Source: Escherichia coli
GTDB lineage: Bacteria > Pseudomonadota > Gammaproteobacteria > Enterobacterales > Enterobacteriaceae
NCBI RefSeq assembly: GCF_044324785.1
Contig: NZ_CP172127.1
DNA length: 64,000 nt
Strand: one strand, 5' to 3'
Positions within the stretch are counted from its first letter, which is position 1, and every line of letters begins with the position of its first letter. The notes under the pieces are model-generated. The model made no database searches and was not told the DNA's origin. It saw only the letters and a program-made list of their open reading frames with translations. The position numbers and the translations under genes were made by a program. Positions 14,640 through 19,171 of this stretch are shown piece by piece.

Positions 14640-14735
14640 GACTTGTAGGCCTGATAAGACGTGTTAAGCGTCGCATCAGGCAATGTGCACCCTACGGTGG
14701 ATGCGGCGCGAGTGCCTTATCCAACCTACGGATGG
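14640..14735. repeat. REP/BIME cluster
   Basis: GTAGGCCTGATAAGACG...CGCATCAGGC and GGATGCGGCG...CCTTATCC motifs; overlaps the last codons of the GH127 gene. Confidence 0.75.
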
Positions 14736-16696
14736 CAATGCTTTTCCTCATTCACCCAGATCCGCATTTCGCCTTCACCCCGGTTGGCCCAGCTAAACCA
14801 CGGGATAAACGTCAGAATTTGCGGCTGGCGTTTGGCTGGCGCGCTGTCGTAATGCCACAGCGGTTGCTGCTCTGGATTGCTCTGTTCATACCGGTAACCC
14901 GGTGCCTGGATTAAGATCTTATGGCTGAACAATCCCTTGCCTTCAAAGGTCGTAAATGGCGCATCGGCGGGCAGCCACAGGTTATGCAGTGACTCGCCGT
15001 TGTCGGCCTGTTCCAGGCAATACACCAGCGGGCCGCGCTGAATCGCCACTTTTCCGGCGACGTGACGCACCAGCGGGTTACCGTAAACGCGGCGTACCGG
15101 CATCGGCAAAGTCAGATTCAGCATATCTCCCTCCTGCCATTCGCGGGTAATGTGCAAATACCCTTTACGAATATCCTGCTCGACCTCTTCCCCATTCAAT
15201 ATGATCTGCGGCTGTGTGCACCAGTCCGGCAGACGTAAAGCCAGCGTATGACGTACCGGCTGGGGCGATTCGACCGCAATCGTCACCTGCTCCTGCCACG
15301 GATAGTTCCCGCTAACCCGCAGGCGCAGCGTGCCATTTTCTACCGGCACTTCCATGCTGTTTCCTGCGTAGATGTTGATATACAACGCATCTTCACGCGG
15401 CGTGTAGAGATAATGACCAATCGAGGTTAGCACGCGGGCGATATTTGGCGGACAACAAGCGCAACCAAACCAACGCTGGCGGATCGGCTTAACGTGATCG
15501 TAGATATGGTTGAATTTCAGCGATTTTGGATGTACTTCCAGCGGATTCACATAGAAGAAATGTTTGCCATCCAGCGCCATGCCGCCGAGCACGGTGTTGT
15601 ACAGTGCGCGCTCCATCACATCGGCATATTGACTGTCGCCTTCCATTTCCAGCATTCGTCGGGCGAACATCATCAGGCCGATGGAAGCACAACTTTCGGC
15701 GTAAACCGTGTCATTCGGCAGATCGTAATCGCTGCTGAACGCTTCGCCGCTGCTTTGTGAGCCAATGCCGCCGGTAATATATAACTGACGCTGGGCCATA
15801 TTGTTCCACAGCCGCAGGCAGTCCTGACGCTTGCTTTCATCGTGACTTAAACGCGCGAGATGCGCGACGCCGGTCATCAGGTAGACAAAACGTACCGCGT
15901 GACCAATGGCGGTTTGCTGCTGTGCGATGGGCAAATGCGCCTGGCTGTAGGCTTTGTCTTTCACCATCCACGCCGGGCCGTAGGTGTGCCAGTGCGAGGT
16001 CTGCCCGCGCTTTTCATATTCCTGGTCGTAATAGTGCGGTTGCGCACCACGCTGTTCGACAAAATAGTTCGTCAGTGCCAGGTAGCGCGGCTCTTCGGTC
16101 ACTTCATACAGGCGCATCAGTGCCAGTTCAATTTCCGGGTGACCGGGATAACCCTGCAGCTTGTCTTCATCTGGACCAAATACGCTGTCGATATGATCGG
16201 CCAGACGGCAAACCACTTCCAGCAAGCGCCGTTTTCCCGTGGCCTGGAAGAAGGCGACTCCGGCTTCAATCAGATGACCGGCGCAGTAAAGTTCATGACA
16301 CTCCGCCAGATTGCTCCAGCGTTCTTCGGGCGCTTTTACCGTAAAGTAAGTATTGAGATAGCCATCTTCGCACTGGGCGGAAGCGACCAGTTCGATTACC
16401 TCGTCAGCGTTTTTTTCCATTTCGGCATCCGGCTTCTGGCACAGCGACCAGGCTACCGCTTCCAGCCATTTGGCGACGTCGCTGTCCTGAAACACCATCC
16501 CGTAAAATTCACCGTCTTGCAGTCCTGCGGCAATGCGAAAGTTTTCAATCGCATGGCTGGGTTCCGCTTCTGGGATACGATCGTTCAAGGCATCCCACTG
16601 ATAAGGAATCACCACGTCGCGGACCAGTTGTTGGTACTGACCGAGGAACGGATCGCTGACCGTCAGTTTATGCAGATCGACTTCCGAAATGTTCAT
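14726..16696 (-). CDS. glycoside hydrolase family 127 (DUF1680) protein, putative beta-L-arabinofuranosidase
   Basis: 656 aa from Met-17 of the track ORF (MNISEVDLHKL...), which has an AAGGAG ribosome-binding site. Cys-rich motif WFGCACCPPN and ESCAS resemble the Cys/Glu zinc site of HypBA1-type enzymes. Family call is from recollection. Confidence 0.7.
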   Translation of the reverse strand: MNISEVDLHKLTVSDPFLGQYQQLVRDVVIPYQWDALNDRIPEAEPSHAIENFRIAAGLQDGEFYGMVFQDSDVAKWLEAVAWSLCQKPDAEMEKNADEVIELVASAQCEDGYLNTYFTVKAPEERWSNLAECHELYCAGHLIEAGVAFFQATGKRRLLEVVCRLADHIDSVFGPDEDKLQGYPGHPEIELALMRLYEVTEEPRYLALTNYFVEQRGAQPHYYDQEYEKRGQTSHWHTYGPAWMVKDKAYSQAHLPIAQQQTAIGHAVRFVYLMTGVAHLARLSHDESKRQDCLRLWNNMAQRQLYITGGIGSQSSGEAFSSDYDLPNDTVYAESCASIGLMMFARRMLEMEGDSQYADVMERALYNTVLGGMALDGKHFFYVNPLEVHPKSLKFNHIYDHVKPIRQRWFGCACCPPNIARVLTSIGHYLYTPREDALYINIYAGNSMEVPVENGTLRLRVSGNYPWQEQVTIAVESPQPVRHTLALRLPDWCTQPQIILNGEEVEQDIRKGYLHITREWQEGDMLNLTLPMPVRRVYGNPLVRHVAGKVAIQRGPLVYCLEQADNGESLHNLWLPADAPFTTFEGKGLFSHKILIQAPGYRYEQSNPEQQPLWHYDSAPAKRQPQILTFIPWFSWANRGEGEMRIWVNEEKHCHP

Positions 16697-16706
16697 CTTG
16701 TGCTCC

Positions 16707-18107
16707 TTAAGGCTGTACATGACGCTGACGCAGGTCGCTAGCAATGCGTGACATCATAGGGTTATTGAGTTTGCAAAAGCGGATCGCCATCGCCAGCAGC
16801 AGGTGGAACAGCGCAGGCAGCAATGTTTCCATCGCCGCGATCCCGCCAAGCGAACTGGCGGTCTGGTTTTCCACGCCAGGCTGGTAGGCGACAAAAATAA
16901 ACAGCAGACTGATGATCCCGGCGCTGGAGGCCCAGGCCAGTTTGATGAAAAACAGATTGAAGGCGAAGTTCATGCCGGAAGAACGTACGCGGGTTTTCCA
17001 CTCGCCGTAGTCATCGGCAAAGGCCATCAATGAGAAGTGCAATGGCAATGTGAAGCCAAGAATCACGCCATTACCGAGGATCACCGCCAGCCACAGCGTT
17101 TGATAAGCCGGGCCAGAAGGCAGGAACCACATCAACACCGCCAGCGCGGCGAGGAGCAGGTTGGTGTAGTAGTAAATTTTGACGGTATCGAAACGCCGCG
17201 TTAACGGGCTGACAATCACCGAGCCGATAATGGAGGCGAAGGTGACCATAGTGAAGAACAGCGACGTGTAGCCCGTACTGCCTTGTAAGACGTAGGTAAT
17301 GAAGTACATATACCCACCGCCGCGAATATTAAAGACGTTAATCAGCAGGAAAGACATGACCAGCATCAGCAGCAGTTGGTCGTTGTTTCGCAGCCCGGCA
17401 AGATGTTCGCGCAGGGTAAATTTCCCCATTGTGGAGAGTGGCACCCGTTCACGAACCCAGAAGAAACAGCACAGGAACATCACCACGGCAATGGCGCACA
17501 ATACGCCGACGCCCAGTTGATAGCCGCGCGCGGCATTACCCTGACCGAAGAGATCTACCATCCACGGTAAGCCTACCGAAACCAGAAATCCCGCCACGCC
17601 GCAGAGAACGAATCGCCAGGACTGGCAGGAGATCACTTCATTGTGGCGGGTGGTCATGGTGTTGATCAGCGCGCAGTACGGCACGTTGATGGCGGTATAA
17701 CCGACTGAAAGGAGCAGGTAAGTGCCGAACGCCCAAGCGATTTTTACTCCCATGCTGGCATCTGGCACGGTGAACGTCAGGATGCCGATAATGCCGATGG
17801 GAATGGCAATCCACAACTGCCACGGACGAAAGCGCCCCCAGCGACTTTGCGTCCGGTCGGCAATGACGCCCATCACCGGGTCGGAGATGGCATCAAACAC
17901 GCGCAGTGCAATAAACAGCGTGCCGACCAGCGCCGGAGTTAAGCCAAAAACATCGGTGTAGAAAAAGGTGAGAAAGTTCATGATCAGGCAAGTTATTACG
18001 GTGCCGCCTGCGTCACCCAGGCCGTAGCCTATTTTTTCCCGTACAGATAACGCATCGTCAATTTTACCTTTAGCGATATCAGCGGTAGTAATCGGTGTAG
18101 AGGTCAT
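16707..18107 (-). CDS. GPH-family (glycoside-pentoside-hexuronide) sugar:cation symporter
   Basis: 466-aa polytopic membrane protein; N-terminal region (GYGLGDAGG...[26 protein letters not shown]) typical of MelB/GusB/YicJ-like transporters; 10 nt upstream of the GH127 gene. Confidence 0.8.
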
Positions 18108-18332
18108 AGATATTCCTCGTGAATAGGGAGCAATTTTTAGTTTTATTGAAATGACATGATTAATTCTGCCGTGAACGGGAATATCAACAAGGCGAGAAAA
18201 GAGTAAAAAAAGGTGACGATTCCGACCTGAATTTAAAAGTGTGAATTGGATCAGGTGAAATTAATGTTTTTGATTAATAATCAAAAGGTAATGTGTTTAA
18301 TCATTAATGAATAAGCGGGAAATTACATATCA

Positions 18333-19148
18333 ATGCTCGAATTATCCATGACGTTACCGATTAAAGTGCAAAATGGTGGATTATTTATTTCCCGTGGCGT
18401 AGGGAGGCATCCGGCAAGGCGGCTGGAGTCATGGGAAATTATCTTTGTCGAAAAAGGTCGATTAGCGATTCAGGAAGAAGAGCGGATATTTCTGGTCGAT
18501 GCGGGAGAGAGTTTATTACTCTGGCCGAACCGACAGCATGTTGGGGTAGAGGATTTTCCCGCCGATCTCAAATTTTACTGGCTGCATTTTGAGGTTAAAG
18601 CGCCGGATAGCGACCCGCGCTGGCTCACTCATCTTAGCGTGCCGCAACAAACGAAGGTTGCCGATCCGCAGGCGCTGGTGGCCCTGTTTCGCCAGTTCTT
18701 AAGCGAACAGGAAAAGCATCAACGCACTCCGGCGCTGGAGTTTATTGTGCTGCTGATTTTGCAGCAGCTCACCCGTGACGCGCGTCTTGATGAACAGGCC
18801 GATGCCGCAGGTACCACGCTTGCCTGGAAAGCGCAGAAACTGATCCGCACGCAATATCATCGCCCGCTTTCCACGGCGCTTTTAGCCCGCGAGCTGTACT
18901 GCAATGCCGATTATCTTGGGCGCGTCTATCGGCGGGTGTTTCATCTGACGTTAACAGAAGCAATCCATCGCCAGCGAGTGCGCGAAGCCGAAAAGCTGTT
19001 AATTAGCGAAGCGCGATCGCTCACTGAAGTGGCGGCGTTGTGCGGGTTTAATGACGTTGGCTATTTCCGGCAGATTTTTCGCAAACACACTGGTTTAACG
19101 CCAGCAGCGTGGAAGCGGCGTTACAGCAAGGAACATATCAATTCGTAG
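18333..19148 (+). CDS. AraC-family transcriptional regulator
   Basis: 271 aa with a cupin-like N-terminus and AraC-type HTH C-terminus (...VAALCGFNDVGYFRQIFRKHTGLTPAAWKRR); divergent from the transporter. Start codon uncertain (alternative Met at 18348). Confidence 0.8.
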   Translation: MLELSMTLPIKVQNGGLFISRGVGRHPARRLESWEIIFVEKGRLAIQEEERIFLVDAGESLLLWPNRQHVGVEDFPADLKFYWLHFEVKAPDSDPRWLTHLSVPQQTKVADPQALVALFRQFLSEQEKHQRTPALEFIVLLILQQLTRDARLDEQADAAGTTLAWKAQKLIRTQYHRPLSTALLARELYCNADYLGRVYRRVFHLTLTEAIHRQRVREAEKLLISEARSLTEVAALCGFNDVGYFRQIFRKHTGLTPAAWKRRYSKEHINS

Positions 19149-19149
19149 T

Positions 19150-19171
19150 GCCGGGGCGATGAAGCCCCGGC
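19150..19171. terminator. GC-rich hairpin between the convergent AraC-regulator gene and sgbE
   Basis: GCCGGGGC-GATGAA-GCCCCGGC perfect stem; no clear T-run on either side. Confidence 0.35.

Follow-up and report, generated by a model that had tools for sequence, protein, structure and literature searches.

Uptake of a small arabinoside followed by its intracellular hydrolysis has been described in Bifidobacterium longum, which imports beta-Ara2 and cleaves it to L-arabinose with the intracellular GH127 enzyme HypBA1 (BLLJ_0211) (PMC7263609). In this organism, import relies on an ABC importer, and the extracellular enzymes HypBA2 (GH121) and HypAA (GH43) make the substrate. A second GH127 enzyme, Ara127N, comes from a Gram-positive thermophile, Geobacillus stearothermophilus T6 (PDB 4QJY/4QK0). 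The family is polyspecific and also includes an aceric-acid hydrolase and 3,6-anhydro-D-galactosidases (PMC5698469 and others). GH127 was previously noted as a variable CAZy family of E. coli, a species in which the YagG-family, YicJ-type and MelB pairs combine a GPH transporter with a cytoplasmic glycosidase. Finally, E. coli araC-araBAD has a divergent regulator gene, an AraC site abutting the -35 element and an upstream CRP site.

Here we analysed a 64,000-nucleotide stretch of E. coli DNA (the window), in which a three-gene module (14726–19148) is flanked by yiaT and sgbE. The module follows the two-gene logic of the E. coli GPH pairs; its glycosidase partner, however, is a GH127 protein, and its transporter is no equivalog of any named E. 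coli GPH transporter. It likewise shares the import-then-intracellular-GH127 logic of the B. longum system, with catalytic and Zn residues common to both enzymes, but uses a GPH symporter and an AraC-type regulator and has no extracellular enzyme, and would thus rely on substrate that others release. Ara127N resembles the window protein in length and three-domain layout, and the CACCPPN and ExC motifs of the two are identical. On balance, we consider it probable that the module serves to scavenge a small beta-L-arabinofuranoside, as an operon subject to catabolite repression and induced by its substrate. It is an old unit at the sgbE/yiaT position, which K-12 and ~45% of E. coli lost through one shared deletion allele.

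Layout of the module

The GH127, GPH and divergent AraC-type genes named in a preliminary description of this DNA were all found in place between the ends of yiaT (14596) and sgbE (19180), as were the REP cluster and GC-rich hairpin it had proposed as boundaries:

14610–14642, plus strand: hairpin GTCGGTGCG-N15-CGCACCGAC, directly 3' of the yiaT stop codon
14645–14729: REP-like inverted pair (BIME-like), inverted repeats with units at about 14645–14681 and 14700–14729
14726–16696, minus strand: GH127 glycoside hydrolase gene, 656 aa from ATG
16703–16708, minus strand: AAGGAG Shine-Dalgarno sequence of the GH127 gene
16707–18107, minus strand: GPH-family symporter gene, 466 aa, first gene of the operon
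18333–19148, plus strand: AraC/XylS-family regulator gene, 271 aa, divergent from the GPH-GH127 operon
19150–19171: GC-rich hairpin GCCGGGGC-N6-GCCCCGGC, 8-bp stem and 6-nt loop

Gene lengths equal those in the RefSeq annotation of the collinear E. coli VCSW5, and the module is already known at the annotation level, as RefSeq gives family names to all three genes. Neither the RefSeq annotation nor the orthologues support a 672-aa version of the GH127 protein starting at TTG, proposed by an ORF lister. The GH127 Shine-Dalgarno sequence, placed 6 nt ahead of its ATG (16696), overlaps the GPH stop codon (16707–16709), pointing to translational coupling and a single operon. Taken together, the predicted products make up an intact set of a regulator, a sugar-glycoside importer and a cytoplasmic GH127 enzyme of the beta-L-arabinofuranosidase type.

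At the yiaT side, the REP-like units are imperfect palindromes of ~35 bp, arranged as an inverted pair in an intergenic 3' region, with the second unit overlapping the GH127 stop codon. The pair scored 57.3 bits (E=1.6e-8) against the REP-derived Rfam family naRNA4, just missing the gathering score of 59.5. A short piece of this region also matches other places in E. coli genomes. At the opposite end, the GC-rich hairpin separates the stop codons of the convergent regulator and sgbE genes; no T-run was found at this hairpin on either strand.

Enzyme, transporter and candidate substrate

The assignment of the 656-aa protein to GH127 (former DUF1680) in the preliminary description is borne out by Pfam, the closest structures and the catalytic residues. 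Matches to PF07944 (E=3.7e-111, residues 12–427), PF20736 (E=1.9e-23) and PF20737 (E=4.2e-25) account for every GH127 domain, that is, the catalytic (alpha/alpha)6 domain and the middle and C-terminal beta-domains. Full-length structure matches were obtained with 4QJY and 3WKW. The closest solved relative is 4QJY (782 bits, E=5e-234): of 630 aligned residues, 55% are identical, a share that rises to 62% within the catalytic domain. HypBA1 matched with 504 bits (E=5e-150). These two beta-L-arabinofuranosidases are the nearest solved relatives by a wide margin over the Bacteroides structures 6EX6 (389 bits) and 5MQO (319 bits).

In HypBA1, C417 is the nucleophile, located in a Zn site with E338, C340 and C418, and E322 is the acid/base residue. 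The alignment pairs E318, E334, C336, C412, C414 and C415 of the window protein with HypBA1 E322, E338, C340, C415, C417 and C418, respectively, and all six were invariant in 80 of the 80 sequences aligned at those positions. We found no signal peptide, hydrophobic segment or hydrophobic N-terminus in the protein, which is predicted to be a cytoplasmic beta-L-arabinofuranosidase (EC 3.2.1.185). Its only NCBIfam match was to the aceric acid hydrolase model NF049879. The BT1003-type enzymes of that model share family and fold with the window protein, but membership of the equivalog was rejected as the score (452.9 bits) is far under the cut-off of 950 bits, with the best-matching stretch confined to residues 252–649.

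The transporter matched TIGR00792 ('gph') over profile positions 1–437 of 437 (333.2 bits, cut-off 231.35), has several hydrophobic segments and gave a full-length match to MelB structures (residues 20–460). These features place it, at the level of sequence, in the GPH (glycoside-pentoside-hexuronide):cation symporter family (TC 2.A.2), suggesting cation-coupled uptake of a glycoside. Two further models were hit without their cut-offs being reached, that of the YagG subfamily at 357 bits and that of the GPH equivalog PRK11462 at 325 bits.

The similarity of the enzyme to beta-L-arabinofuranosidases suggests a beta-L-arabinofuranoside as the substrate, with beta-1,2-L-arabinobiose or some other short glycoside capped by beta-L-Araf as candidates. 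Less probably, the same importer, GH127 enzyme and AraC-type logic could serve a different physiological substrate, such as another furanoside, an unusual sugar glycoside (compare the aceric-acid and 3,6-anhydro-D-galactose specificities) or a small-molecule plant glycoside. The polyspecificity of GH127 and the aceric acid model as sole NCBIfam match speak for this, as does the reported induction of a Salmonella GH127 gene by lactulose (PMC13304739), a hint that the range of effectors may extend beyond arabinosides. Moreover, our search of the literature found no data on enzymatic activity, transport, growth or expression for enterobacterial GH127 orthologues and no experiment linking this orthologue group to a substrate. 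We nevertheless consider a different substrate unlikely, given the weak and partial match to the aceric acid model, the ranking of two beta-L-arabinofuranosidases ahead of 6EX6 and 5MQO, and the retention of all HypBA1 active-site residues.

A candidate control region resembling araC-araBAD

The regulator combines an N-terminal cupin ligand-binding domain (PF02311 AraC_binding, E=1.5e-8, residues 26–132) with a C-terminal double helix-turn-helix (PF12833 HTH_18, E=4e-19, residues 184–263), as in the AraC/XylS family. Its scores stayed below the cut-offs of all named equivalogs, among them AraC (61 versus 208 bits), and it is therefore not AraC. A consensus scan called no sigma-70 promoter in the GPH/regulator intergenic region. 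Footprinting of this region in an alignment of 22 species highlighted the following elements:

18163–18190, minus strand: candidate weak promoter of the GPH-GH127 operon, proposed from conservation only, with -35 TTGTTG (18185–18190), a 16-nt spacer and -10 CAGAAT (18163–18168)
18185–18228, minus strand: conserved block, GTCGGAAT ... CTTTTT.TACT ... CTTGTTG, upstream of and overlapping the candidate -35
18240–18255: CRP-like site TGTGA-N6-TCAGG, with GATC and TCACA kept in 95–100% of the 22 species
18276–18283, plus strand: conserved ATAATCA/AATAAT element, putative -10 of the regulator gene promoter

The CTTGTTG motif is preserved in at least 91% of the species. The conserved block also contains TCACCTT and TCGCCTT, a TC(A/G)CCTT pair spaced 21 bp apart, and is a candidate binding site for the AraC-type activator. 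The CRP-like site would be centred ~41 bp upstream of the putative regulator start and ~92 bp upstream of the putative operon start. The arrangement resembles araC-araBAD in its divergent AraC-family regulator, the CRP-like site between the candidate promoters and a conserved block at about -29 to -72 by a weak candidate -35 with candidate half-sites 21 bp apart, a likeness drawn from sequence conservation and estimated spacing. We infer the promoter and operator assignments, as we do the inducer and transport.

An ancestral module lost by deletion in K-12

The AraC/GPH/GH127 trio was also found in ~70 other Enterobacterales species. Of the 80 related loci, 68 have the genes ordered and oriented as in the window, and these span more than 25 genera. 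It often lies between sgbE and yiaT, as in Citrobacter, Enterobacter, Lelliottia, Pseudocitrobacter, Huaxiibacter and others. All three genes are under strong purifying selection, with dN/dS values against E. whittamii of 0.043, 0.027 and 0.064. The GC content of the module (0.53–0.56) is the same as that of its flanks, and it contains no integrase or transposase ORFs or other mobility genes. A GH127 protein with 72% identity is present in Bradyrhizobium, indicating that the enzyme gene is able to move between distant taxa.

In K-12, yiaT and sgbE are nearly adjacent (346 bp apart), as the preliminary description had stated, and the intact module is absent from this position. The gap is not empty but contains a 347-bp scar from two deletions:

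14624–14839: deletion 1 of K-12-type genomes, 216 bp, between GGCTGG repeats at 14618–14623 and 14834–14839
15024–19044: deletion 2 of K-12-type genomes, 4021 bp, without junction microhomology

Deletion 1 takes the right arm of the hairpin 3' of yiaT, and the REP-like pair is missing from the scar. Deletion 2 takes most of the GH127 gene, the whole GPH gene, the control region and regulator codons 1–237. What remains is 190 bp from the interior of the GH127 gene and the 3'-terminal 104 bp of the AraC-type gene, still ordered and oriented as in the intact module; the GC-rich hairpin is also present. RefSeq annotates these remnants as partial pseudogenes, one from GH127 and one from the C-terminal part of an AraC-family protein. 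The scar coincides with the ysaC/ysaD pseudogenes between sgbE (yiaS) and yiaT, names that designate this interval in the genotype of a K-12 strain (PMC12361893); ysaC/ysaD are at the same position but are decayed remains of genes that are intact in the window.

Among 5426 complete E. coli genomes, the module is kept in 2313, while 2460 carry the K-12-type scar. K-12 and ~45% of E. coli share one deletion allele. The module is of old standing in enterobacterial chromosomes at the sgbE/yiaT site, where it has been inherited vertically, and its presence is the ancestral state. The placement in the yiaT-sgbE gap in the preliminary description was right, but the module is not an addition to that gap: K-12, with its remnants, arose by deletion.

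The same description had proposed a self-contained uptake and hydrolysis unit, which fits the operon structure, the recurrence of the trio across Enterobacterales and the independent loss of the module and its neighbour yiaK-sgbE. Alternatively, the module could be an accessory of the adjacent yiaK-sgbE (2,3-diketo-L-gulonate/L-xylulose) operon, with sgbE, an AraD paralogue, handling the released pentose. The sgbE-sgbU adjacency is preserved in many genera, and SgbE is an L-ribulose-5-phosphate 4-epimerase, the final enzyme type of L-arabinose catabolism. This reading is nonetheless very unlikely: the regulator gene and sgbE converge on a hairpin that separates them, araBAD is present elsewhere in the E. 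coli chromosome, and about half of the module-bearing species have no sgbE within 6 kb of the module. Furthermore, the two units were lost independently, with O157:H7 keeping the module without yiaK-sgbE and K-12 keeping yiaK-sgbE without the module.

Least probable of all is a horizontally acquired island inserted at an empty ancestral site typified by K-12, for although the module is patchy within E. coli, has a REP cluster on one edge and encodes an enzyme whose gene can move between distant taxa, this reading is refuted by the ordered remnants in the supposedly empty site and the equal sgbE/yiaT position across genera, and is further opposed by module divergence that follows that of the flanking sgbE, by flank-like GC content and by the lack of mobility genes.

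Proposed function in E. coli

For a beta-L-arabinofuranoside-scavenging operon, we propose the following sequence of events. A glycoside that other organisms have freed from plant extensins, arabinans or arabinogalactan proteins would pass the outer membrane through general porins and be brought in with a cation by the GPH symporter. In the cytoplasm, the GH127 enzyme would release L-arabinose using C414 as a Zn-held cysteine nucleophile and E318 as the acid/base glutamate, and the sugar would enter the resident araBAD pathway. The divergent AraC-type protein may detect the substrate or product through its cupin domain and activate the weak promoter from the site abutting the -35 element, assisted by CRP bound between the divergent promoters. 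To our knowledge, E. coli has no secreted enzyme that releases beta-L-Araf oligosaccharides. The supply of substrate to strains that retain the module would therefore depend on other organisms.

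Genes and boundaries of the module

ORF listing of window 14640-19171 identified three intact open reading frames between yiaT (MipA/OmpV family), which ends at 14596, and sgbE, which ends at 19180, is convergent with the regulator gene and encodes an L-ribulose-5-phosphate 4-epimerase (509 bits, cut-off 386).

Genes of the module, from the ORF listing
14726-16696, minus strand: GH127 enzyme, 656 aa, ATG start
16707-18107, minus strand: GPH symporter, 466 aa, directly upstream of the GH127 gene on the same strand
18333-19148, plus strand: AraC-type regulator, 271 aa, divergent from the operon

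Gene coordinates are collinear base for base with those of E. coli VCSW5 up to ~25.7 kb. In VCSW5, RefSeq names the three products 'glycoside hydrolase family 127 protein', 'MFS transporter' and 'AraC family transcriptional regulator', and a cluster search on the module genes gave neither gene names nor locus tags, only generic family names. The GC content of the module (0.53-0.56) equals that of its flanks, with a dip to 0.40 in the divergent intergenic region, and no mobility genes were found within it. The module is an uncharacterised member of well-known families, already in databases by family name, and is in kind a routine regulator-transporter-hydrolase sugar module.

The preliminary description had placed a REP cluster at one edge and a GC-rich hairpin at the other, and both were located.

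Features at the module edges
14610-14642: hairpin with a 9-bp stem, directly after yiaT
14645-14729: two inverted REP-like units, the second overlapping the GH127 stop codon
19150-19171: GC-rich hairpin GCCGGGGC-N6-GCCCCGGC, between the regulator and sgbE stop codons, with a T-run on neither strand

Lacking a T-run, the hairpin at 19150-19171 is not a canonical intrinsic terminator. Terminator-like matches from a scan of 14500-19300 were judged to be noise, as 12 were found inside genes where 5.5 were expected by chance. In an Rfam scan, the two strands of 14648-14726 matched naRNA4, a family of REP-derived nucleoid-associated RNAs, at 57.3 and 45.4 bits, below the gathering score of 59.5; apart from this, the scan gave two weak, chance-level matches (E ~0.3) and no riboswitch or leader RNA.

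Elsewhere in the window, a 306-aa DUF4862 protein (PF16154, E=4.5e-94) is encoded at 25742-26662 on the minus strand, between yiaM and yiaL in the yiaK-sgbE operon. K-12 and VCSW5 do not carry its gene, which occurs in just 1055 of 5426 complete E. coli genomes. It is another gene of variable presence, here in the operon adjoining the module. According to the VCSW5 annotation, two paralogous pairs of DUF3302 and HlyD-family genes, yibI-yibH (2162-3663) and yiaW-yiaV (11296-12761), lie 9 kb apart.

The module is ancestral and K-12 carries a deletion

Comparison with K-12 and the E. coli pangenome revealed the module (≥80% of a 4.6-kb query, 95-99% identity) in 2313 of the 5426 complete genomes, including O157:H7 and a BL21-type B derivative (B95 delta A). 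As the preliminary description had anticipated, the intact module is not found in K-12, whose derivatives cover just 7% of the query. Alignment of K-12 with the window resolved two deletions. The first, of 216 bp, lies between GGCTGG repeats at 14618-14623 and 14834-14839 and removed the REP pair together with the last GH127 codons, while the second removed 4021 bp (15024-19044) without junction microhomology. The resulting scar keeps a 190-bp internal GH127 fragment and the final 104 bp of the regulator gene in their original order and orientation. RefSeq annotates both fragments as partial pseudogenes, and the interval is named ysaC and ysaD in a K-12 strain genotype. A scar-spanning K-12 query had a contiguous, complete match in 2460 genomes, which therefore share one deletion allele.

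A search of one genome per species with the GH127 query gave 80 loci whose enzyme is 71-96% identical to it, and 68 of these have the AraC/GPH/GH127 arrangement. The full sgbU-sgbE-module-yiaT-yiaU context is present in ~20 loci, including those of Citrobacter, Enterobacter, Lelliottia, Pseudocitrobacter and Huaxiibacter. Against E. whittamii, dN/dS was 0.043 for GH127, 0.027 for GPH and 0.064 for the regulator, and divergence of the module against other genera was similar to that of the flanking sgbE. Taken together, the cross-genus synteny, the dN/dS values and the sgbE-like divergence indicate that the module is ancestral at this site and has been kept by selection, the K-12 state being derived. 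A horizontally acquired island is ruled out by the K-12 remnants and by the shared position across genera. The earlier view of the module as sitting in a gap was not upheld; our analysis corrects the direction of change (ancestral module, K-12 deletion) and adds the exact junctions and a predicted promoter map.

Losses extend beyond the scar. In O157:H7 (locus L003, 8553-8693), yiaK-sgbE is lost, the module is kept and a yiaJ fragment adjoins the AraC-type gene; given this reciprocal loss in O157:H7 and K-12, functional dependence on the yia-sgb operon is an unnecessary assumption. Among strains without yiaWVUT, A21 has the module with a frameshifted GH127 gene, and others lack the module, with aldB directly beside sgbE. 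The aldB-yiaJ interval is a deletion hot spot. A Fic-family gene lies between yiaY and aldB in two strains without yiaW-yiaT, SCAID URN1-2021 and A21.

The species scan also yielded two unusual occurrences. In Bradyrhizobium (seven loci: L076-L081 and L084), the GH127 protein is 71-72% identical to the E. coli enzyme and has no GPH or AraC neighbours; the sole informative family among its neighbours was a prolyl-oligopeptidase-like protein. Such high identity across alpha- and gamma-proteobacteria suggests that only the enzyme gene has moved between the two classes. A contig labelled Chryseobacterium sp. 18061 (Bacteroidota; locus L028) carries an enterobacterial AraC-GPH-GH127 locus. Its DNA is 94.6% identical to that of Citrobacter sp. 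18056, which belongs to the same project, and this assembly is probably mislabelled or contaminated.

Origin of the scar allele

The 190-bp GH127 fragment of the scar (4001-4190 of the K-12 locus L001; window 14834-15023) has one and the same sequence in three unrelated strains: K-12, 361 and one of serotype O111:H8. It differs from the intact E. coli alleles examined at 18-21 sites (9.5-11%), approximately the distance of those alleles from Escherichia sp. E1V33. By contrast, the adjoining yiaT shares 99.1% identity with the window. Two histories would account for this: the deletion may have occurred in a divergent allele that recombination later spread, or the fragment may have decayed first and spread afterwards. 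The 18 differences from the window fall at 10 third, 5 first and 3 second codon positions, a third-position bias that is only partial, and introduce no stop codon or frameshift. None of the loci compared was closer to the fragment than the E. coli alleles are (E1V33, 89%; E. whittamii, 87%; E. coli alleles, 90.5%).

A more far-reaching reading, which we consider improbable as a whole, is that the intact and deleted forms are an old presence/absence polymorphism that niche-dependent selection has maintained in E. coli. All scars, being one allele, would then descend from a divergent Escherichia lineage, and recombination would have carried that allele across phylogroups; its GH127 fragment is the same in the three strains yet ~10% away from every intact E. 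coli allele examined. Carriers would cross-feed on beta-L-arabinooligosaccharides freed by bifidobacteria or plant-associated microbes from dietary or plant extensins. If true, plant L-arabinofuranose would be within reach of E. coli, contrary to current accounts (PMC8489885).

Family assignment of the three proteins

The enzyme of the ancestral module contains all three GH127 Pfam domains (PF07944, E=3.7e-111; PF20736; PF20737). Its nearest solved relative is the Geobacillus beta-L-arabinofuranosidase 4QJY (782 bits; 55% identity overall, 62% in the catalytic domain), followed by the Bifidobacterium longum beta-L-arabinofuranosidase HypBA1/3WKW (504 bits). These domains and structures bear out the family reading of the preliminary description. 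In the alignment to HypBA1, E322, E338, C340, C415, C417 and C418 correspond to E318, E334, C336, C412, C414 and C415, and these six positions are invariant in 80 of 80 aligned sequences; H134, H186 and the GHAVR histidine correspond to HypBA1 H142, H194 and H270. The sole NCBIfam match was the aceric-acid hydrolase equivalog, a specificity we do not assign because the score of 453 bits falls below the 950-bit cut-off. We found no hydrophobic N-terminus or other hydrophobic segment in the enzyme, which is therefore predicted to be cytoplasmic.

The transporter passes the curated GPH model TIGR00792 (333 versus 231 bits) and aligns end to end with MelB structures. The regulator has an AraC cupin domain and a double HTH. 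It falls well short of the cut-off for each named equivalog (AraC, 61 versus 208 bits), so it is not AraC itself.

Conserved elements in the control region

A perfect AAGGAG lies 6 nt before the GH127 ATG and is overlapped by the GPH stop codon (16707-16709), an arrangement that fits a single GPH-GH127 transcript with coupled translation. We aligned the 225-bp divergent region of the window with those of 21 other species, ranging from E. whittamii to Pantoea, Mixta, Rouxiella and Enterobacillus. Conserved blocks stand out against a poorly conserved background.

Conserved blocks of the divergent region, read on the operon strand
18277-18283: TGATTAT
18240-18252: GATC-N4-TCACA, 95-100% kept
18219-18226: GTCGGAAT, invariant
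18202-18212: CTTTTT.TACT
18185-18191: CTTGTTG

On the basis of these motifs, TGTGA-N6-TCAGG (18240-18255) is a putative CRP site, and TTGTTG, a 16-nt spacer and CAGAAT (18190-18163) form a candidate weak, activator-dependent operon promoter. Abutting its -35, the block at 18185-18228, with TC(A/G)CCTT repeated at 21 bp, is a candidate activator site, and AATAAT (18276-18281) is a candidate -10 of the regulator gene. With transcription starts predicted near 18288 (+) for the regulator gene and 18156 (-) for the operon, the putative CRP site would lie at about -41 from the former and -92 from the latter, which would be similar to the arrangement of araC-araBAD. A consensus sigma-70 scan of 14500-19300 called no promoter in the control region (18108-18332), as expected if the promoters are activator-dependent.

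Likely function and implications

We propose that small beta-L-arabinofuranosides freed by other organisms would be imported by the GPH symporter and cleaved by the cytoplasmic GH127 enzyme, with the released L-arabinose entering araBAD and control exerted by CRP and the dedicated AraC-type activator. The closest precedent is B. longum, in which Araf-beta1,2-Araf, freed by extracellular HypBA2 from glycans of the extensin type, is taken into the cell by an importer and split to L-arabinose by intracellular HypBA1 (PMC7263609). Of these steps, the E. coli unit covers import and cleavage, and its importer is a GPH symporter rather than an ABC system. Unlike B. longum, it has no extracellular enzyme, hence the proposed scavenging. 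We have high confidence in the general logic of inducible import and cytoplasmic GH127 hydrolysis. Because GH127 is polyspecific, we are only moderately sure of the predicted beta-L-Araf specificity, which nonetheless appears likely from homology. The functional reading of the preliminary description, a plant-glycan uptake and hydrolysis unit, is left intact and supported.

Our search of the literature on GH127, DUF1680 or beta-L-arabinofuranosidase in Enterobacteriaceae or O157, Ara127N and ysaC/ysaD found no functional study of the module, and what it did find were mentions at the level of pangenomes and associations. The prevalence of GH127 varies among clades of E. coli (bioRxiv 10.1101/2021.10.19.464957), invasiveness and GH127 co-segregate in inflammatory bowel disease isolates (PMC11879602), and lactulose up-regulates a GH127 gene of Salmonella (PMC13304739). 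Work on plant-associated O157:H7 described E. coli as unable to access L-Araf directly (PMC8489885).

If the proposed function is correct, ~43% of E. coli strains would take up and split beta-linked L-arabinofuranosides, as would most sampled Citrobacter, Klebsiella and Enterobacter species, whereas K-12, the reference for E. coli metabolism, could not. This would bear on the stated inability of E. coli to access L-Araf directly, and on the clade differences in GH127 and its link with invasiveness. A plant-derived carbon source would then be missing from K-12-based metabolic models.
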